DNA of 63,886 bases, the filler included, from Asterionella formosa (Eukaryota): NCBI GenBank assembly GCA_002256025.1. It is 7 parts of 7 records of this genome, joined end to end, with 100 filler letters (N's around TTAATTAATTAA, not from the genome) between each part and the next. Parts side by side here need not be neighbours in the genome. Positions count along the whole stretch, not along the records: positions 62,202 to 63,886 come from NKIB01001500.1; 6 more parts are not named here. The stretch is one strand, 5' to 3'. The first letter of the stretch is position 1; each line of letters starts with the position of its first letter. The translations under genes were made by a program, and so were the position numbers. The notes beneath the pieces were generated by a model that was not told the DNA's origin, ran no database searches, and worked only from the letters and a program-made list of their open reading frames with translations. This document shows, in pieces, positions 5,790-63,886 of the stretch.

Positions 5790-7284
5790 ATGTCAGATGA
5801 TGAATATGAATATTATACAATTATGATGATCAGTTCGTGTTCTGTTTCTGCTAATTATTTTGATCATGGGGCCATGACTTCTTGACAAACTACTATTAGC
5901 TATTAGCTACACCTCCTGCTTTAGAATTTCTTACTCTGATGAATGTCATCTCATGGTTGCATGTTTAATACACACATCCAATATGCCCACAACAAGACAC
6001 ACGACAGGACGAAGAAATGCAAAACATGGGGGTCAAGTGGCACTGGAAAATGCATACCCGTATACTTCATTGTCCTGGACCCCCCAGTACATTTTTCTCG
6101 AGGTGGAACCAAACACCCAATAATTTTCTTATCACAGACAATTTAATATGCTAAAATTCTTTTTGTCCTCGCAGGCACTAGTATATAATTATTTAGCTAC
6201 CATGTTGCGATTCTTTTGTACATACAAAACACAAGAGAGGACAGGTAGTGGCTGTTAGCAGGTGGAGAATCCTTCATGCATCATGTTGTCGCAACCTTGA
6301 CCATGACAAAAATACGAATTATCTCCACGAAAATAGAGAACGACGCTTTGCTACTTGCTACCTGTATTAACAACGACATGGAAAATACAATTGTAAAAGA
6401 AGTAAAGTAATAACACTAATAATGACAACGAAAGTTGAGATCAAAGATAACAACATGAAGTCACGTTATTCTTGCGAGGTGAAGAACTCTCTCATTTTTC
6501 ACATCACAGAAATAATTGTCATATTAATACATCTCAAAAAATGTGCGCTATCCTGTAGAACTAATGAAATTAACTTAGGTCCAGTATTAGGGAAATTTCT
6601 TCATTGTCCTGGCCCCCCTTGAGTAAAATCAGTCAAATGCAGTCACAGCAGTGTCCATTGGGGGGGGGGGGTCCAGGACAATGAAGTATATGGTATTACA
6701 ATGCCAAGGGCCTCCGCAATTCAAGTGTAGAAAAGGCCATTCAGGCATTTAAAGAATTGTTGACAAAGGAACAACATAATCCAACCCTGTTGTCATTCAA
6801 GGCATTGAAACAACTTGTCAAACTACATATTCGACACGCTCACAAGGAACAGTACATTAGGGACTATCAACGCTTATTACAGTTGTGGCGAAAGGAGAGA
6901 TAACTCCCAATGCCATGGAAAAAGGGATGCATACCATGTTGGATAGGTTGCCATCAGAGGGGGCGGTCTATGATGCAACCATTACTTTGCTTCCATCCAA
7001 CAACGGGGGCATGTCCCAACAAATGACTATGGTTCAAAACAACGCTCAAATATGGACAATTGTGTTTCGATTCGAATCAACTTGCCAAGCTGCAAGTTGT
7101 CTTGAGAGACTTGTCCAAATTGGGAAGTAGTGGGAGTCATCAAATGGAAATTTATGCCCTAGAAATGCAATTGACAACACATCAAAAGGATTTAAAACAA
7201 GTTAGAAAAACGTTTGAAAATGCAATGGCAGTGAGAGGGGGGATTCCACGAACATTGGCACTCTTTCAAGAGTTGGGATGCTGA
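5790..7284 (+). pseudogene. CSN2: COP9 signalosome subunit 2 pseudogene (N-terminal part), interrupted by a MITE
   Basis: MSDDEYEY at 5790; VALENAY before the MITE and YYNAKG...FKALKQLVKL after it; NAMEKGMHTMLD; LWFKTTLKYGQL; MEIYALEMQL. Frameshifts near 6884 and 6990, TGA at 7024-7026 where R of RLWFKT is expected, and the sequence ends before the PCI domain. Confidence 0.85.
6063..6688. mobile_element. Non-autonomous TIR element (MITE) with TA target duplication, Tc1/mariner-like; family A copy 1
   Basis: Left end TA|TACTTCATTGTCCTGGACCCCCC at 6061; right end GGGGGGTCCAGGACAATGAAGTA|TA ending at 6690. Extra internal TIR-like copy near 6599-6618. No transposase ORF. Confidence 0.9.
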
Positions 7285-24478: not shown

Positions 24479-26520
24479 GTATGTGTTTCACTAACGGATT
24501 GAAAAGCAGTTCATGTGCATTAATAGATGTCGACCGGCAATTTTATGAAGTGTCGATGTATGTACGGTAAGATAGGACTGCAACGATGAGATGGAATAAG
24601 GATGATGAATGTGTGCAAATGGACGGAGCAAGCATAGCTTCCCCTTCGCTCGTTGAGAATCAGGCTGGCGGATTATTGGATTTGAATTTATTGTCTCGGC
24701 TGAAATGTAGCGTTAGGGTTTTGCTCAGAATCAATGGTACATACAAAGACCATCATGTATAATTTCTACTGTAATATAGTGGCTCCTCCGGATACGTTTC
24801 CGCCTGCCTTGTTATATTACTGGTACCAGGTACCACCTGTTACCAAGTATGTAGTGATACGTACTGGTACCTGGTACCTGGTACCAGGTAGTACCGATGC
24901 CTGGTGTACTTTTTATTCACACCCTGAATTTTAGGTCAAACTGACACCTAAAAAATGGTCGGTACAAAATGTACACACGAGAACGCCTTCTACCTCGGGC
25001 GGACCACACCCATCCATACCTAACACAGAAAGTACTGATAATACGTTGCAGGGCTGAGCAGATCACAAAAAATATTGTAACTATACTAGTATACACATAC
25101 GACTCACCATCACTTCATTTCAACCTCAACCTCAACCAAATGATAGAATGTAGATGAAATGAATAGTTAGCTATTAGTAGTGTCAGTACTACTTGTTCTG
25201 TTGAAATTTGTTGACAACATTCAACAATCGTGGTGGCCTGATTCTTCGGTTGACTGCTTGAACCAAATTAATTCCTTTGTTCATTTCAATAACTACTAGT
25301 AGCAATTCATAAGCATCAAAATTTCAAAATCAGAGTTTCGATGTTAACATGGTAATCTTTAGTAGTAGATTTATCCATACTGGTCTGCTAGCTAGTTTGA
25401 ATAATCTTGCACATTGTGAGTTTAGCTTCATGCACTCCTTGCGTCGCTGATGAAGCCTCAATGATAGGCTTATGGAGCGAGTTCAATCATCTCTTAAATC
25501 CATCAAAGAATCATGTTATTTGTGTGAATTTTTAACAACCCGACCTGCTTTATCAGCTTGCAATAAATGGTGGACCCTCAGTGACAAATTTGCGTGACAT
25601 TGTGATAGAGAATACAATTCAACAATCTAAAATGCGCCAGATTTTAAAAACTTGAAATCGGTGAATAATAGACGAACACATTCAAAGGGTTTTTTAGCAA
25701 TAAGAACAGGGTGGTTAATCGATGATAGCGGGCAATCAATTGGGCTTGAATTGGCAACGAAAACGAAGAAGTATGCTGACTCTATACTACTACTAGGCAT
25801 GGATCATGGTAAACAGAATAAATCAGACGACTACATAATCAAACGAACATTTTCATGGCTGTCATGATATCTAGTCATCAACATTCTATTTTAAAATCAC
25901 ATCCACACATGCAACAAGCTGTTAGAATTGTGGTCGCATTACCAACATGCAACTATCACAAGATACTACAACCCAAAGTTCACCTGCAATTTTGCTGCAT
26001 ACTAGCTAGTATTTCAGAGATTGACGAGACAGCATGGACTTCGGTTGATTGCTGCGATAATCGATCGTTGCCTCATAAAAATGAGCACATCCGTAGCTAG
26101 CAATGACAAAGGTGAGCCGTGGCAAACTGTAGACCGATCATATGGTTTCGCAATATTTAATGACAAGGACAAAGAAAAGTTCATGCCGACAAGATTCTAC
26201 AACACACCGGTATGGTACGTACTGACATGTATGTATGCGCATCCATCAGGTACCAGGGTACTGGTACCAGGTTCCTGGTACCTTGTACCGGTATTAGAAC
26301 TCCATAATATCATAGTAAGTCATGACTACCGTCCAGTATAATTCTATATTTATCTACCGGTACCAGGTACCGTACATCAATGCTCCATGTCAGGTGCGTA
26401 TCAGGTACCCTGGTACCTGATACCGGTACATCCAATGCATCACGTACCGACCTGTAGCTAAGTACGGTATGAACCATCAGAATCCGTCATCCGTTTTACA
26501 CTGTACAAAAGTATTGAATG

Positions 26521-26682: not shown

Positions 26683-26872
26683 GGCAATTAATTTAACCTA
26701 AAATTCCCCACCTTCTGCCGCAGGTATACCGGGTAGCGGGTAGTATTGCTTTACTTCACATACCAGTATCTTACCAGTATGTACATCGTGCCAGATTATT
26801 GGCAGTACTGGTAGCTACGTCTCGGCTCATTGCAATTACCAGGTACCTGGTACCAGGTACCAGGTACCAGTA

Positions 26873-27433: not shown

Positions 27434-27533
27434 NNNNNNNNNNNNNNNNNNNNNNNNNNNNNNNNNNNNNNNNNNNNTTAATTAATTAANNNNNNNNNNN
27501 NNNNNNNNNNNNNNNNNNNNNNNNNNNNNNNNN
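27434..27533. other. Artificial 100-nt contig spacer (N-TTAATTAATTAA-N); same spacer at 54959-55058, 56745-56844, 58531-58630, 60317-60416 and 62102-62201
   Basis: An identical six-frame-stop linker is embedded in Ns, and the flanking pieces have descending lengths (27433, 27425, 1686, 1686, 1686, 1685, 1685). Confidence 0.97.
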
Positions 27534-44602: not shown

Positions 44603-45204
44603 ACCAACAGAACATATATTGTTAAAATGATGGTCGGGTGAGAGGTTCGATCAGCCAGCTAGTTGGAGTACAATTCAAGCAACAATGACAAAAATGTAAG
44701 AATGAAGAGTGTAGTGAGACTGCACAAGCGTGACAACGGACTGCGGACTAAAATATCCATCATTGATCAAGGCAGGACAACACACATCATCAGGCATTTC
44801 TCTTCCAGCCATTTATTTAATAGAGGAGTTATTCCATCAATCATGCTAATGTTGCTGCAGATGTTTTGGTCCAGCATAACTAGTCATCAACAGCAGAAAT
44901 CTCATAGACTATTGCAAAGGTACTGCTGGCTGGCTGACTCTGTGATGATTGGTTGATGGAAATGCTTGGGTATTTGAGCAAATGGCTGAGTGGCAAAGCA
45001 TGTTGCCTTTGATCTGAAGTTATGTGGTTCAATTCCTGCATTTTTTGAGAAGCAATTATTGGGTTTGATTCCCACACTCCTTACCATCCTGCACAGTCTA
45101 GCCTGGTTTGCAAGAAAAAGTGTGTTGTCCCATGCAGGCATCTTGTGCCACCTTTCTAGGCAGTTGGAATTTCCCCAACCACTGTGGTTGAGGTGAGTAC
45201 CATA

Positions 45205-45930
45205 TACTTCAGTGTCCTGGACCCCCAATGTACACTGTTGTGAGTGAATTTGACCAATAGGTTGAGATTTCCCTCATANNNNNNNNNNNNNNNNNNNNNN
45301 NNNNNNNNNNNNNNNNNNNNNNNNNNNNNNNNNNNNNNNNNNNNNNNNNNNNNNNNNNNNNNNNNNNNNNNNNNNNNNNNNNNNNNNNNNNNNNNNNNNN
45401 NNNNNNNNNNNNNNNNNNNNNNNNNNNNNNNNNNNNNNNNNNNNNNNNNNNNNNNNNNNNNNNNNNNNNNNNNNNNNNNNNNNNNNNNNNNNNNNNNNNN
45501 NNNNNNNNNNNNNNNNNNNNNNNNNNNNNNNNNNNNNNNNNNNNNNNNNNNNNNNNNNNNNNNNNNNNNNNNNNNNNNNNNNNNNNNNNNNNNNNNNNNN
45601 NNNNNNNNNNNNNNNNNNNNNNNNNNNNNNNNNNNNNNNNNNNNNNNNNNNNNNNNNNNNNNNNNNNNNNNNNNNNNNNNNNNNNNNNNNNNNNNNNNNN
45701 NNNNNNNNNNNNNNNNNNNNNNNNNNNNNNNNNNNNNNNNNNNNNNNNNNNNNNNNNNNNNNNNNNNNNNNNNNNNNNNNNNNNNNNNNNNNNNNNNNNN
45801 NNNNNNNNNNNNNNNNNNNNNNNNNNNNNNNNNNNNNNNNNNNNNNNNNNNNNNNNNNNNNNNNNNNNNNNNNNNNNNNNGTTAGGTACCACCTTGAGAA
45901 AATGTACAGGGTGTCCAGGACACTGAAGTA
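45205..45930. mobile_element. MITE family A copy 2 (interior mostly an assembly gap)
   Basis: TA|TACTTCAGTGTCCTGGACCCCC at 45203 and GTCCAGGACACTGAAGTA|TA ending at 45932. The TIR differs from copy 1 at one position (G vs T), mirrored at both ends. Confidence 0.85.
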
Positions 45931-46054
45931 TACAGTACCTCTCTGGAGACTCACCTATGCTAACAAAAGCAGGCTGTTATTTGACCAGGACACTGAAGTA
46001 TACAGTACCTCTCTGGAGACTCACCTATGCTATCAAAAGCAGGCTGTTATTTGA
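45915..46054. repeat. 70-bp tandem duplication covering the MITE right end and flank
   Basis: ccaggacactgaagtatacagtacc...aggctgttatttga at 45915 and 45985, with one mismatch. Confidence 0.9.
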
Positions 46055-55058: not shown

Positions 55059-56744
55059 ATTGATAGAAAAAGTAATCTGAAGTAATCACAACATTGAAAG
55101 GGGTTAATCTGAAAGTAGATTAAAGTGTTGTCGAAAACTAGCTAGTGGAGAACTAGTAGTACTGGACACTAGTTGTGTAAGTACTATCAAGTAGATCTGG
55201 AACATCTCAACACGTTTTTAAAAACAATTGCTTGTGGAAGTTAAGGTCACAAAGACAAGAAGTGATTGTGCAAAGGATGAGTGAAGCAAGTTGGTCAGAG
55301 AAAGAAGATTTGACAAAAGAAGAGATGTAGTTGGTGAGACAAGATGATGAAGCAAAGCATTTTCTTATTTTGTCATGCAGAGGTGACGCTTTTGCAATCA
55401 TTGAATCATATGAAACAGCATACCAAATGTTTCAAGCTCTCAAGGACCGGTACAACTCAAAGAAGACAAAAGATTTGGAAAAAGCAACAACCAAGCTTGA
55501 AAAGTGTTACATGAAATCAGACATAGATGATCCCTACCTTTGGATTGTCGAAATGGAACGATTGAACAGAGAAGTGGAAAAGTGCGAAAATGGATCAAGA
55601 CGCAGTGAAGAGCAAATGCAAGCAACTATATTAGCAAGACTACCAAAACGAAGATATGAATCAGTGATTTCATCTCTAAATGGAAAGATTGGTACAAAAG
55701 GATTTGACAATAAGGACTTCATTGCTGAGATCATTGGCTGGCCATTATGAGATGTTTGCGGAGCCATTCAAAAATCGTCAAAATCGCGAAAATCAAGATC
55801 AAAGAGAGAACAAGGAAAGAGGAAAGCATCTGGCTCTGAATACTACAAGTGGAAAAGGTGCCTGGAGAACTTTAAAGGTAAATGCAACAAGTGTGGAAGA
55901 CAAGGCCACAGAGCAAGAGACTGCAGAAGCAATGGCAACAGCAACAACAGTGGAGAGAAAGACATTGAAAAACCGAAGGTGAAGTGCTACAGTTACGGCG
56001 GATTTGGTCACATTGCAAGAGATTGTCCAAAGAAGGAAGAGTCTGGTATGTTTGTTGGTATGACAATCCGTGGAGCTGATATCCGGGAGGATGATGTCAA
56101 GAAGAATCAAGATGCTAAATCAGAGTATTTTGACACAAATAAATTTGCAATTGAACTTTTGCAAGAAATTGCAGACTATAACAGGAAGAAGAGAAGTGTC
56201 TTGAAAGACATAAGAGAATTTAAGTGGAAACCAAGAAAATACAACAAGTTCCAACAAGTGATAAGCCAAAAGAAGAAAGTAGAGAAAAAGACCATGAGCT
56301 GGGCTGATATGTGTGAGACAAGTGATGAGGAGGAATATGACAATGTCGACGAAAATGAGAACAGAGGAATTGTTGATGAGAAAGAAATTATTTACCAGAT
56401 GGAAAAAACAAGCCATGGAGCAGAATGGATGTGGGATGAGGACGTTTTTGTTACAAATTCATTGAAAACCATGAGCCCTGTCACAGAGAGTGGACATAAA
56501 AGCTGGCTTGTTGACTCAGGAGCAACAACTCATGTGTCCATCAACACTATAAAAATGAGTAATTTGCAGACTGAGCATGTGAGGGTTGGAAGCAATGAAA
56601 CCCTTAAGGCAACAGCAATTGGTGATTTAACTCTGGAGCAGAAGGACACATAGAAAACACTGAAATTGGAAAAAGTGATGGTTGTTCCCGGTTTTGCTCG
56701 AAATTTGATAAGTGTTGGCAGGTTGACAGAGAAAGGAAACCAAT
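55059..56744 (+). mobile_element. Degenerate Ty1/copia 5' part (probable LTR end, gag, protease)
   Basis: Putative LTR end TCAACA at 55212; gag DDPYLWIVEMERL; knuckles CNKCGRQGHRARDC and CYSYGGFGHIARDC; protease WLVDSGATTH; stops and frameshifts. Confidence 0.88.
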
Positions 56745-57353
56745 NNNNNNNNNNNNNNNNNNNNNNNNNNNNNNNNNNNNNNNNNNNNTTAATTAATTAA
56801 NNNNNNNNNNNNNNNNNNNNNNNNNNNNNNNNNNNNNNNNNNNNCCTTCATGTTTGTTGCTGATAGGATCTAGGATTTTCTAGTAAACCGGGGGTTACTA
56901 ATGGATAGTTGTTTTTCTTTCGTTGGTGCCCTGGTAGTGAGAAAAAGTAATCATCCTGACTAAATATCGTTCTTGTCGATAATCAGATCCTAGTAAGAGG
57001 TACTCGGAGTACATGTCTAATAGATTCAAGAATCTATATATACACATGTGTGTATTGCTGACAGGACTGCAACTACACATCGGTACAAATATATTTATGT
57101 ATGTAGTTTTCGATACGTTTGGACGATTCGTCATGATTGTGTGACAAGAATGCGAAGCATTGTTTTCTTACCAAAAACGACAATCATCATCATATGTACT
57201 GTATCTACCGGAATATCACGTCTAAAAATAAAGTGTAAATCTATAAAAAGCTAATAATGCCTGCTACATACACGATGCTGTGCATTCAGCTACTATAAAT
57301 ATATACAGCCAAATATCGTAACTACAGAACATATTTATAGACATCATACCTGG

Positions 57354-58530
57354 TGTTGAAAGGTCTCGTACTCCTTCCCGTCTGACGGGTTCCTCTTACG
57401 TAGAACTTACCTGTTATACCACTAGTATTGTTATCTTCTTTCTGCTGCTAGCCTTCGTGCTAGTTTTCGCTATTGACCTTACTCTGTCAATTCTCACTGT
57501 TTCTTAATTATAAGATTAAACTAAAACTAAGTTTCAATCCCATTCATCACATTTCGAGAACCTGTTCTTCGTGTTCCCTTTTCGTTGATGTAAACCTTCT
57601 TCTGATTGATCTAAGACATCAATCTCGTTAGCAAGCTTCTTGACATGGGAACGCACCATTTGACTCATTGGACTATAGTCGAGTCCACAGTCCTTGTGAC
57701 TCATTATAGCCATTGATGCTATATTCTTGACATCCTCCTCGTTACCATGTTCAAGAAGTTCTAAAATTGTACCACTCAGCACGGGTCCAGATAACCTTGT
57801 AAAAATCTGCTCTTTGACATTCTTTGTCAAAATGTCTGCTGGATTGTTTTCTGATCTTAGAAAAACAATATGCAACTCACCCTCATCTATCATGTTCTTG
57901 ACATGATGAAACTTAATATCAATGTGTTTTGTTCTTGTTCCAAGTTGTTGATTCTTCGCTGTGAATATTGCACCTGTATTATCCTCACGTAAAATGCTTG
58001 GTAGGATATTTTTGCCACCTGTCACTTCGTTGAGTAACATTGCAATAAATTTAATCTCTTGAGCACATTGCGACATTGCAACGTATTCTGCTTCTGTGCT
58101 TGATAGCGTAACGGATGACTGGCCCTTTGATTGCCAACTGATCAACGCACCACCAATGGTAACCAGAAAACCCGTAGTACTTTTCCGGCTTACCTTATTA
58201 GCAGCCCAGTCACTATCAACATAAGCAATAACCCGTAATTCCTTAGGTTTTCGAATCTTGAGAACTCTGTCCAATTTGCTTGATAAGAATCCAACAACTC
58301 GTGAAATTCCATCCCAGTGTTCTTCGCCTGGACAGCTTAAATACGAAGATAATTCACGTACTGCATTGGCACAGTCCGGGGAATCTTTCTTAGTAGACCA
58401 TAATAATTTCCCAACAATCTTGCGATATTCCGCCTCCATAATAGTTTCTCCATTATTGGCTCCTAATGTTTTTCCTGGTGCTCCTGGTGTCGCATAAGAC
58501 TTTATCTTCTTCCCAGTAAGCATTTCATAT
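57354..58530 (-). mobile_element. Ty1/copia 3' end: RT C-terminus, RNase H, PPT and 3' LTR (57354-57732)
   Basis: YRKIVGKLLW, YVDSDWA...RKSTTG, SSTEAEY, EDNTGAI, TKHIDIKFH and NPADILTK. Purine tract GAGGAGGA abuts a 379-bp TG...CA LTR. Confidence 0.95.
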
Positions 58531-58630: not shown

Positions 58631-60316
58631 TAGCTGACTCGCTGGAAGAGGACCTGGAGGATGTAATCGAGTGTTCACATTCACTTGAAAACCCCACCAG
58701 TTACCACCAGGAAAGGTTGGATGGTATGGCCAAGAAGTTCACTACAACATGTCACCAGGTGGCAGAGGACCTGAACCTCCACCAACGGGTGGCGGGACAA
58801 AACCCACCAAGAGTGACAGAACAGAGACCCGAAGGAGGATCTTCCGGGAAACCCGGAGGGCGGAGTCGCGAGGAGACCGTGAAGATGTAGCACAGCTTGG
58901 GGACATGTACAAGACTGCCAAAGAAAGGGCGCGGAAGGTGATCCGCCTCTCGGGTAGGCGGGCATGGTATAAGGCAATTAGGGAGGCTCACGTCAATATG
59001 CGCAAGAAACCTCGCCACTATTGGCGGTGGGCCTCAGCGACGGCAGGATGGCGCCAGAAGAGCAGCATCGACTGCCCTTTACTCGGACCCCTGCAGACTG
59101 TTGCGAGGTGTGCGGCAGGGTTGCTCTCTTTCGCCTATACTGTTCAACATCTTCATTGATGACTTGGCAGTGGGGACGGAGGAGAGCGGTGCCCTGGTAC
59201 CAACTGGGGACAGTCGCACATGGCGGAACTCCACACCCACACTGACAGTGGGATGTACCCTCTTTGCTGATGATGCGGCCGGAATCTGCCCCTCCCTGGA
59301 GGCGGCCAAACGGTTCTGTACGCACGTTACCAACTGGGTTACAGCTAACGAGATGAGTGTGGGCATAGGGAAGTGCGGGCTGATGGAATTCCTACCGCCA
59401 GACCCAGGTTCGGCCACCGAACCGCTTGTCCCTGGACAAGATGTGGCTGGACTGGAACTGGAGGGACTTCCACTCCCTGTTGTGGACAGATATATGTATC
59501 TGGGTGTCCTCATGACACCAGGTCTGTCTATCTCGTCTATGGTGGACCATAGAGTCAAGCAAGGGCGGGCCACAGTTGCCACCTTGGTACCGTTTCTACG
59601 GTGCCCGGTGGTACCAATGGCCATGCGTTTGCTGACTGTTGCAGGAGTAGTTGCCCCCCGCCTCCTTTTTGGGGCTGAGCTGTATGGTATGAACCGTCAC
59701 CTTACGGACAAAATGCAGGTTCTTCTGAACCGATGCCTTAGGGCTAGCATTGGAGCCAGGAGGGCAGGGGGTGTGCCATCAGTAGGCCTTTGGAAGGAGG
59801 CACGGATGTTGCCAATGTGTGCCTTGGCGGGTGCCCGACGGGCCAGAGCTTATGCCAAGGCCTCGGGTCTCAAAACCTGGCTTCAGGAATTGGTCCTAAG
59901 ACCATTCCGAAGTCAGAAATGGACATGGTGCTCAGGGGGTCCGCGCTGGCTGAAACGCTATGCGCTCCCCCATGCACCGGTGTCTATTGTGGAGAGGTAC
60001 TTGGGTGCTGGATGGCAGAGCCTGGAACCAAAGGTACTGGCTGAGGTAGTGAAAGCATGCATCTTGGAGAGAGAGTGTGGGATCCGACGGAACTTGACTC
60101 GTCCGTCGGGGGCCCGCACAGTGTGGTATGAGGGAGCCGGATTTGACAAGCATCCACTCACACGGTCACGTGTGGGGGGCAGTCCCAACGACCAAGCAGG
60201 ACTGGCTTTGATAGTTCGGTGTCGGATTGGGGCATTTGTAACTGTCCCCACCTTGGTGGGGTGGAAGCGAATGCCTCATAGGTATTTGAGGAAGTGTCCA
60301 TTTTGTGGTATGGATG
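58631..60316 (+). mobile_element. Non-LTR retrotransposon (LINE-type) RT fragment with internal deletion
   Basis: RGVRQGCSLSPILFNIFIDDL, LFADD, KCGLM, YMYLGV and C-terminal CPFCG. Visibly GC-richer than the host sequence. Confidence 0.9.
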
Positions 60317-60416: not shown

Positions 60417-61741
60417 TCTTCGTTTCTATTATTCTTAGATGCACTGTTACTAGTGCACTCTCTTGCGTAGTGTCCCATGCGTTGGCACTTGAAACACTTG
60501 ATCGTTTTCCTCTTTTCTTTCTGCTCAGGAGTGAGCTCCTTCTTGTCGGCACTATTGCCCTTGCTGCGACATTCAGCCGCCCTGTGGCCATACTTGCCAC
60601 ACTTACGACAGTCACCTTTGAACTTCCCTTTCGTGTAGAAGGCCTGTTCACTCTTGTTCTTGTCAGTCGTTTTGACGTCATCCCGGACATATAGATCGTA
60701 GTAGTCCCGGATGTCTGTCTTAATCTCTTCGACCGTTAGCGTGTTGCGCGCCAGGCCGAACCTTCCTACTACCAAACTCTTGTAGCTTTCAGGTAGGTTG
60801 TTGATCATGTGTGCCACATAGGCACCATCCGAAACGGCGGAGCTCGTATTGCCCAATCGTTCCCGGATTCGATCCAACTCCACATACCAGCTGTCGGGGT
60901 TCTCGTTTTCCCCTAGAGTGCACTTCGTCCATTGGTGGGACAAGGCAATGACATTCGCCATGTTGCCTGACTCATACGTAGAAATGAGCTTGTCCCATGC
61001 TTCTTTAGCATTGCCGTTAGGAAACTCGGCACTTCTTGCATTATTTACGTGTCCGAATGGCCCACTCTGGCATGCCATTATCAGACTTGCGTAAGCAACT
61101 GTGTTGCTCCTTCGGATGCGTCTCTCGTCAGCATCCGACAACACGATCGTATCGCCCTTTAGGTCTTTCTCTCCTCTTGGTAGTTCGTCACCGTTAAGTA
61201 TTCCTTGAAAGTTCTTGTAGCACGCGTATGCGAGAAACTTCGCTTTCCACATGTGCCATTTAGCATCTTGCCCATCGAATGTCGGCAACCTCACTGACGT
61301 GTCTTCGTCACTTCCCATGGTTCCTGAGTAGCCTGTGGCCTTAAAGTGAACGCTTTAAAGCGTGTTGAAAGGTCTCGTACTCCTTCCCGTCTGACGGGTT
61401 CTTCTTACGTAAAACTTACCTGTTATACCACTAGTATTGTTATCTTCTTTCTGCTGCTAGCCTTCGTGCTAGTTTTCGCTATTGACCTTACTCTGTCAAT
61501 TCTCACTGTTTCTTAATTATAAGATTAAACTAAAACTAAGTTTCAATCCCATTCATCACACTTCGAGAACCTGTTCTTCGTGTTCCCTTTTCGTTGATGT
61601 AAACCTTCTTCTGATTGATCTAAGACATCAATCTCGTTAGCAAGCTTCTTGACATGGGAACGCACCATTTGACTCATTGGACTATAGTCGAGTCCACAGT
61701 CCTTGTGACTCATTATAGCCATTGATGCTATATTCTTGACA
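60417..61741 (-). mobile_element. Ty1/copia 5' end: 5' LTR (61363-61741) and open gag from ATG 61318
   Basis: LTR matches 57354-57732 with 3 substitutions seen. Gag has LPTFDG...WKAKFLAY and two CCHC knuckles (CRKCGKYGHRAAEC, CFKCQRMGHYAREC). Confidence 0.95.
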
Positions 61742-62201
61742 CACAGCACCGATAATGATATAACGACAAAACTTGTTGTTGCCGACCACATCATTCCGCG
61801 CTTCGGTGCCACGACAGCACCCGCATTCAAATGGAGTTAACTAATTTGGATATACTTCCGGCAGTTGATTGGTGCTTTAACTGTTACTGTCATGCATAAT
61901 ACAAGATTTCAGCCATAGTAATCTCGCCTCGCCCATGATAGCCTAGTCTTTTCTTTTCAAGTCTTTTGAATTTAGCCCATCAGATAGTATCATTCATGTC
62001 AGCTCGTATCTTCCGTCACGTGATGCTCTTATTAGTTGTTGTGGTACCTCGTGCCAACTCCTTTGCTGGCATCGACGAAGGATCGCTTGGTAGACGACGA
62101 TNNNNNNNNNNNNNNNNNNNNNNNNNNNNNNNNNNNNNNNNNNNNTTAATTAATTAANNNNNNNNNNNNNNNNNNNNNNNNNNNNNNNNNNNNNNNNNNN
62201 N

Positions 62202-63886
62202 CGTACGAGTCAAGTAATATGGCAAATGTGATTGCCTTGTCAGGTCAGTGGACAAAATGCACGATTAACGAGAATGAGAACCCCGACATTTGGTTTGTGG
62301 AGTTGGATAGAATTCGAGAACGATTGAGTCTTACGAGCTCCGCAATTTCGGATGGTGCCTATGTGGCCCATGTTATCAACAACCTACCGGAAGTCTACAA
62401 GAGTTTGGTGGTTGGAAAATTTGGTCTCGCGAACTCCGAGCTCACGATCCAAGAGGTCAAGAAGAATGTATGCGACTATTACGATTTGTATGTGTGTGAC
62501 GAAACCAAGACGAATAAGAATGGCGAGCAGGCCTTCTTTTCAAAAAGCAAGTTCAAGGGAGACTGCAGGAAGTGTGGCAAGTATGGCCACAAGGCAGTTG
62601 ATTGCCGAAGCAAGGGCAATACTACAGAAAAGAGAGAATTAACTCCCGAGCAACGAAATAAGAGAAAGAATGTGAAGTGTTATAATTGCCAGAAGATGGA
62701 GCACTATGCCAGTGAGTGCAACAATCAACAAAATGCACCAATCAAACAGAAGGGAGAAGACGCCAACACTACTACGCAAGGAATGTTCGTGGTGACGTGT
62801 ATTGAGGCAAGGTACCTGGTACAACGAAGAGGTAAATTATACGTGCGTGCATAAGGACCGTTGGCTACTAGATAGTGGCGCTACGGTACATATATGCAAT
62901 GATGAGCGCATCATGGAGGACAAGTGCGCAGTGCATGCAACTGTTCTTGTGGGAAACGGCGCAGCAACTGTTGCGACCGTATCAGGCACAGTGACCCTTA
63001 CGACGACAGACAAAGGAAAAGTGTTGAAACTCACCAATGTGCTCTATGCACCGGAGTTCAAGCAGAACATTATCAGCATTTCGAGAATTATTGACAAGGG
63101 AAATCAAGTTATGTTTGACGATGATAAGATGACAATCATAAACAACAACGGATTTTTGATCTGTAAATGTGATGAAACGAGGACAATTGGTGCAATGTAC
63201 CATGTGCAAGGAACGCCTATTCTAAAGGAAACGGTGTTGGAGGTTGAACAAGAAAGCGAGAAGCCAACACAACAATCTATCGACTATGATACTAAAGAAG
63301 ACGAGAATGAATGGACGAAAGTTAACGATAAGAAGAAAACGACGAAAGCGATAGATGAAACGATCGAGAAAAGAAACGCGAACGAAAATAATGATGTGAT
63401 TGTGGAAATAAATGAAGCGCATGAAATGCTTGGACATGTGGGGGAAAAATGTCTTCGTGAGACATTGAAATTATTTGGGTGGAAACTTGTTGGAAATTTA
63501 AAGGTGTGCGCAGGATGTGCAGCAGCCAAGGCGAAAGCACGCGCAGTACCCAAGATGACGCAAGAGAAGGCTAAGACACCGGGAGAAAGACTGTTTATTG
63601 ATATTAGCGGACCCTACGCAAAATCCGCTGTGGGAAATCAGTATTGGGTGATGGCCGTGGACGATTATACAAGGAAACGCTGGAGTTATTTTATTAAGAA
63701 GAAAAGTGACATCGGAATTGTCATTGGAGCGTTACTCACAAAACTTGCAGGTGCGGGACATAAGACTAAGTTTGTCCGATGTGATGACGCAGGTGAGAAC
63801 TCCAAGCAACTAAAGAAAGTATGCGAAAACCAAGGTGTCAAGATGGAATTTACGGCACCTCATACTCCGCAGCACAACGGTGTTGT
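62202..63886 (+). mobile_element. Ty1/copia gag-protease-integrase fragment, frameshifted by a 7-bp insert
   Basis: Gag similar to the 61318 gag (MANVIALSxQWTKCT); protease WLLDSGATVH; HHCC motif HEMLGH...CAGC; integrase core FIDISGP, VDDYTR, RCDDAGE and TPQHNG. Runs off the window. Confidence 0.95.

Follow-up and report, generated by a model that had tools for sequence, protein, structure and literature searches.

The window analyzed here, a 63,886-nucleotide stretch of Asterionella formosa DNA (GCA_002256025.1), consists of contigs joined by N-padded TTAATTAATTAA linkers (27434–27533 and later gaps), so that neighbours across the gaps are not genomic neighbours. Its final contig, G000:C1500 (NKIB01001500.1), is by its sequence a decaying Ty1/copia copy with separate gag and pol frames (Table 1). 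Pfam profiles match zf-CCHC (E 9e-10) and Retrotran_gag_2 in the gag frame, which is read from the contig start at 62202, and Pol_BBD (E 4e-18) and rve (E 1e-5) in the pol frame; the Retrotran_gag_2 and rve matches fall under Pfam's curated cut-offs. The resulting order of zf-CCHC, Retrotran_gag_2, Pol_BBD and rve corresponds to the gag zinc knuckle, protease and integrase of Ty1/copia, and the contig terminates within the integrase. A 7-base insertion at a TA, seen as TACCTGGTA at 62813–62821, is the sole frame break in the 1,685-base contig. The gag frame continues for 12 residues past the motif to a stop at 62852–62854, and the pol frame is open to the end of the window, bearing out the original prediction that this motif breaks the copia polyprotein frame. 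It can also inactivate open reading frames, as had been proposed: the shift here is +1, with a stop 14 codons on.

Table 1. Features of the window that bear on the scar at the gag–protease junction
Feature	Position	Strand	Remarks
Second scar-word stack	24862..24890		CTGG, CCTGG, CCTGG, CCAGG
Stack of four TA-CCWGG-TA words	26837..26866		central bases A, T, A, A on + strand
One end of CCAG-ended TIR element, cut by contig end	26867..27433	+	in last TA of scar stack; 98% identical to L103 element
Whole contig G000:C1500, internal fragment of a decaying copia copy, without LTR	62202..63886	+	siblings 94–98% identical
Ty1/copia gag frame with two zinc knuckles, truncated 5' by contig start	62202..62854	+	loses register after scar
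Ty1/copia pol frame, protease-type beta-barrel and integrase core	62796..63886	+	open to contig end
TA-CCTGG-TA scar	62813..62821	+	duplicated TA around 5-base core; 7 bases longer than other copies

The copia domain order, with integrase directly after protease, is shared with the diatom Ty1/copia (CoDi) elements as presented in the available part of PMC2806351, where most putatively active copies have at most one stop or frameshift between gag and pol. In the focal family, by contrast, a single frame continues through the junction, and the shift is a lesion private to one copy. Elsewhere in the window there are fragments of other copia families at 55751–56653 (+), 57534–58530 (−) and 60417–61354 (−). 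The segment at ∼57340–57800 recurs at ∼61360–61790 and looks like a shared LTR, and a GC-rich contig at 58942–60316 (+) has an RVT_1 frame and looks like a non-LTR retroelement.

We compared the focal site with 36 other copies of the copia family. The family search gave 40 matches, 30 of which were obtained as loci; one of these is the focal contig, leaving 29 fetched copies, to which 7 further contigs were added. All 7 bases are lacking from 28 of the 29 fetched copies and from 7 of 7 further contigs, or from 35 of 36 copies overall. The remaining copy, L014 (G000:C14141), has 3 extra bases at the same TA, reading TA-G-TA; this insert keeps the frame, yet creates a TAG stop, and looks independent of the focal insert. 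Contigs from three runs of other studies (X6, X8 and X9) also cross the focal site without the 7 bases, the runs that contain the stretch being algal and freshwater metagenomes. Because 35 of 36 other copies and the contigs of three other studies lack the 7 bases, the insert is private to this copy, and the empty allele that the original prediction expected at other genomic copies is the prevailing form. A genome-wide search with the filled-junction pattern returned 4 exact matches, and the 3 besides the focal site are not copia; these matches had suggested recurrent hits in the copia family, a possibility that we rejected since the loci are unrelated. Among 15 one-mismatch matches to the filled junction, the one fetched lies outside copia, and the listed copia copies include none of the 15 contigs.

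Over 1,683 columns, private substitutions of the focal copy number 20, with 7 CpG transitions among them, and its closest sibling lies at 1.5% distance. Together with the private insert, these changes support the proposal that the insertion would postdate this copia copy; the contig carries no LTRs by which to date it. The insertion may instead have occurred in a parent copy that has left no other surviving descendant. Across copia copies L011–L030 and the all-against-all set described below, we also observed many 3-base duplications away from TA. The 3-base indels occupy 547 distinct contexts, 88 of which parse as TA-x-TA; the non-TA duplications could be products of slippage or footprints of an element with a 3-base target duplication.

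Alignment at the focal site alone allows the insert to slide from 62811–62817 to 62816–62822, and also to be read as GGTAC, 5 bases, duplicated on either side of CT. Evidence for the TA parse therefore comes from other sites rather than from the focal site alone. The scar word occurs 21 times in the window compared with 0.34 in shuffles, and 0 of 100 shuffles reach 21; scar-like words as a whole occur about once per kb of the window. In a 289-kb sample, which comprises the window and 38 stretches (L051–L088) chosen around pogo matches and whose densities are thus not genome-wide, TA-CCWGG-TA is found 78 times against 3.2 expected, a 24-fold excess. Also enriched in this sample are TA-CCGG-TA (82 versus 4.7 expected), TA-CCAG-TA (73 versus 15.6), TA-CCAGGG-TA (18 versus 0.6) and the CCCGG word (13 versus 1.1). 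CCCAG/CTGGG is at background there (2 versus 2.2), and we found no enrichment of TA-CCA-TA, a Sleeping-Beauty-like 3-base product (51 versus 53), or of TA-CCATGG-TA. None of the 40 CCWGG and CCGG words in the window lies in an identifiable host coding region, and 2 occupy the upstream portion of a single long frame; long frames contain 1,204 of 3,509 window TAs, but comparing this fraction with the word count is partly circular for an insert that shifts frames. As a separate observation, TA-CTCCGAG-TA (6 versus 0.1) and TA-CTCCG-TA (9 versus 1.0) are enriched in the window plus L051–L088 and look like footprints of a CTCC-ended element. CTCC ends are those of plant Stowaway/mariner elements.

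An all-against-all comparison of 171 sequences yielded independent empty/filled pairs for 22 CCGG, 6 CCAG/CTGG and 4 CCWGG sites, the last including the focal site. The 3 other CCWGG pairs, which lie in other repeats, have a single TA in the empty form and a TA on both sides in the scarred form, and along with the 35 empty copia copies they argue that the motif is, as predicted, a true insertion at a TA. Across this small set of 4 pairs the CCWGG core is constant under differing flanks, such as AAA..ATG and CTG..TTT. Because the flanks in 2 of the 3 non-focal pairs are unable to supply the core, it must have an outside origin. At one paralogous TA, copies differ in having either CCGG or CCTGG, so that word and family are not related one-to-one. 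At three paralogous TAs the alternatives are CCGG and CTGG, and for this reason CpG decay probably explains part of the CCAG/CTGG class.

Searching the genome for TA-flanked TIR families, we found two CCG-ended pogos, one CAG-ended family and one CCA-ended clade. The young CCG-ended pogo family (L034–L043, L050, L051 and L053) has copies 99–100% identical to one another and contains DDE_1 frames; TA-CCGG-TA and TA-CCG-TA probably stem chiefly from this family. The window has remains of CCG-ended family B with paired TIRs at ∼6058–6693 and 45200–45935, the second spanning an N gap. L062 and L121–L150 represent a long non-coding repeat that is present in high copy number and contains nested inverted repeats; pogo elements have inserted into it, and it carries numerous scars. 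A CCAG-like inverted repeat in L062 was rejected as an element end, being an internal part of that longer repeat. Tc1-type DDE_3 gave 0 matches among 16 candidates in the genome.

The CCA-ended clade has at least four subfamilies, with ends CCACTT, CCAGTC, CCAGTA and CCACCT. CCAC ends mark its commonest young subfamily, and the CCACTT subfamily includes a 746-base MITE as well as forms of 2.2–3.7 kb. One TIR pattern of the clade has 264 matches in the genome compared with 0 for the reversed control, the clade transposase has 207 matches, and a TA is present at 62 of 71 end flanks. Full-length copies with TA-flanked TIRs are found at L171, L177, L184, L191, L196, L202 and L209. Among these, L191 (G000:C14068:1-3540), of the CCAGTC subfamily, is 3,532 bases long and has matching TIRs and 779 open codons.

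Three tests connect the CCWGG scars to this clade, based on the flanks, on the rank of the focal TA and on the missing CCCAG class discussed below. With cases beside another scar or element end excluded from the counts, GG precedes the TA at 30 of 60 CCA-clade element ends (50%) and at 43 of 111 CCWGG scar sides (39%), compared with 6 of 150 CCGG scar sides (4%) and 5% of all TAs; the bias is absent from the CCG-ended pogos (2 of 21 and 1 of 14). In a natural insert-free copy of the copia element, the focal TA ranks first of 79 TAs under the raw target profile, and second, or tied for places 2–4, of 79 under cleaned profiles. As for the words themselves, CCAG, CCGG, CCWGG and CCAGGG can all be formed as prefix-plus-suffix products of CCAG ends with at most four bases retained, and all are enriched. 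The products specific to CCAC ends are not enriched (9 versus 10.9, 0 versus 1.2 and 0 versus 0.4), and the CCAG-ended subfamilies therefore fit best. The CCAC subfamily either yields CCWGG by another geometry or is rarely excised; with three bases retained, CCAC ends could still produce CCWGG. L103 and L111 share an 800-base locus, and the TA at which L103 contains a CCAG-ended element appears in L111 as TA-CCTGG-TA; the two match on one side only, with just ∼25–30 bases in common outside the MITE. The far flank of this pair is found only in L111, and a search for it beside an element end gave no match. From these sequence comparisons, the scar is best read as an excision footprint of the resident CCA-ended, TA-targeting, mariner/pogo-like clade.

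The transposase of this clade has no Pfam hit, no PDB hit by sequence, and no match by sequence to the DDE_1 profile or a known pogo transposase; comparison with the genome's own pogos likewise gave no BLAST or profile match. Homologs number 260 among 7,999 scored candidates and are nearly all unnamed, the named ones coming only from Fragilaria crotonensis. In an alignment of 53 sequences, D310, D459 and D497 are at least 90% conserved, and the second and third Asp are separated by 37 residues. These Asp residues lie in the motifs VDEVG, LDGHGSR and WQVGD, which may be Fot1-like. Language-model features place the protein next to DDE_1 clusters at 0.95. For the predicted fold (model pLDDT 83), the ten best Foldseek matches in the PDB are all to Mos1, Sleeping Beauty or SETMAR, with probabilities of 0.87–1.0 but weak E values of 0.012–0.16. 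The clade thus combines TA-flanked TIRs with a DDD/E triad in a predicted RNase H-type fold, the features by which ITm elements are recognized. With the class read from the conserved Asp triad and the predicted fold, the enzyme is predicted to work like those of the ITm (IS630-Tc1-mariner, pogo) group. TA flanks, short TIRs and a conserved Asp triad resemble those of pogo/Fot1-like DDxD (Pfam DDE_1) elements. The clade differs from these in having no Pfam hit, a length of ∼780–1,000 residues, 37 residues between the last two Asp, and a GG-TA-CC target bias.

These observations suggest how the focal scar would have arisen. A TA-targeting cut-and-paste transposon would have landed at GG-TA-CA, at the gag–protease junction of the copia copy, and duplicated the TA. 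In a later excision, staggered cuts would leave either flank with a small number of terminal bases, which end-joining would then seal as TA-CC(A/T)GG-TA. The simplest geometry involves an element with CCAG...CTGG ends and up to 4 bases retained per side, such that the overhangs would pair over three bases around one A:A mismatch resolved to either A or T. The whole transposon would first interrupt the frame, and the scar would then keep it broken, its 7 extra bases shifting the single gag–pol frame by one. We consider this scenario as a whole, in which an element of the CCA-ended clade inserted, duplicated the TA and was excised from the copia copy, to be likely.

Scars are often found next to one another and next to element ends. 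The four-word stack in Table 1 is directly followed by the CCAG-ended element, and, overall, 32 of 98 distinct element-end flanks adjoin a scar word, compared with 529 of 35,570 ordinary TAs (1.5%). Of 40 pairs of adjacent CCWGG words, 20 agree in their central base, which argues that stacked words record independent events and not slippage. Scars probably attract new insertions and so stack, judging from these adjacencies. Element ends beside scars could also reflect a shared preference for hot spots; the feedback itself is likely.

Several other explanations of the focal insert merit consideration. Its position at the gag–protease junction, where Ty1-type elements can frameshift, would suit a conserved programmed gag–pol frameshift site, as the original prediction noted for the case in which all copies carry the 7 bases. 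We found the opposite, in that 35 of 36 copies and the three other runs are without the insert. Moreover, among the 35 copies in which the site could be anchored, 28 are stop-free in one frame through the site over at most 150 bases on each side. A programmed site was therefore rejected, as neither conservation nor separate frames were observed and no other copy has the 7 bases. The filled allele is known from an assembly contig, but an assembly error would not be expected to spell a word that is 24-fold enriched elsewhere, and we give these two explanations together almost no chance of being correct. Spread of a mini-repeat, by slippage or by the copying of words from stacks into breaks with no transposon needed at every site, would fit the frequent head-to-tail arrangement of the words in 7-base steps and their high density of about one scar-like word per kb of the window. 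Slippage would however copy the central base, which agrees in only half of the adjacent pairs, and the focal insert stands alone within coding sequence, without another such word nearby. We regard this type of spread as highly improbable.

Repair templated by the flanks is another candidate, and the focal insert can indeed be described as a 5-base duplication plus a 2-base filler that completes the palindrome AGGTACCT. Here, a break in the GTAC palindrome would be followed by fold-back or strand-switch synthesis that copies the left flank (CT) and then re-copies GGTAC, with no transposon involved. The preference of CCWGG words for GG flanks agrees with such a route. Yet the flanks could not have templated the core in 2 of the 3 other CCWGG pairs, GG is absent from 68 of 111 unstacked scar sides, and the genome is rich in elements that have suitable ends and show this flank bias, making this route unlikely. 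A source among the CCG-ended pogos, with a CCCGG/CCGGG footprint altered by CpG deamination or a CCGG footprint plus one base, would draw on families that are present, young and equipped with DDE_1 frames. It would also account for the enrichment of CCCGG and for the paralogous TA with CCGG in one copy and CCTGG in another, and the focal copy does show CpG decay in 7 of its 20 private changes. Deamination of CCCGG, however, predicts CCCAG as often as CCTGG, and CCCAG/CTGGG is found only 2 times compared with 78 for CCWGG; with this class missing, CpG decay was rejected as the origin of CCWGG. The GG bias seen in CCWGG is, in addition, lacking from both CCG-family ends and CCGG scars, and a CCG-ended source appears very unlikely.

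Footprints of known transposons offer a comparison for excision of a CCA-ended element. Sleeping Beauty leaves TACAGTA/TACTGTA, which is explained by overhangs of 3 bases that mismatch at the centre, and it also leaves shorter forms such as TAGTA and TACTA (10.1101/659086, as far as its text was available). The likeness lies in a TA duplicated around terminal bases of the element and in two forms that differ at a central A/T, and short forms of this kind are likewise seen among the other copia copies. Unlike in that system, the core here is 5 bases, CC-W-GG, with 7 bases added and not 5, and the best fit, which we infer from genomic pairs, is up to 4 retained bases and not 3. Passer, a pogo-type element of the pogo superfamily, likewise leaves short footprints on excision, of 0–4 bp according to the accessible portion of PMC9976928. 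These are exceeded by the cores of 5 and 6 bases seen here, and the DDE_1 profile does not find the clade transposase. In the open-access literature, we found no matching paper on such scars in diatoms, on pogo footprints at TA or on diatom TA-targeting MITEs, and no paper on self-targeted footprint arrays or on footprints that regenerate their target. None of the three diatom genera searched for is mentioned in the available part of PMC7325037.

Excision footprints of this kind are textbook material, and the focal site by itself is nothing unusual, a footprint in a retrotransposon copy that is dead. It provides a clean test, with dozens of sibling copies giving the prior state, and shows that the scar words are insertions that break genes. 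What is new here is this in-frame test of a scar, the link to one clade, and the Pfam-negative transposase of that clade.

The structure of the scar suggests a further consequence. As it ends in GG-TA and begins with TA-CC, one good target would become two, on which the clade could land again so that scars stack. We lean somewhat towards the broader reading in which a divergent, Pfam-invisible, mariner/pogo-like clade of diatoms rebuilds its preferred target twice with each scar, giving self-feeding stacks in non-coding DNA and frameshifts in coding DNA, with at least one apparently intact driver in the genome. If true, this loop would explain the build-up of GGTACC-rich stacks and would make transposon excision a visible and datable source of mutation in these algae. 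The open-frame copy L191 makes the self-targeting idea testable. We also observed CCA-ended elements at L157 (G000:C2608:1102-1143) and L106 that are inserted in the TA flanking another element's end, giving head-to-head arrays with one common TA.
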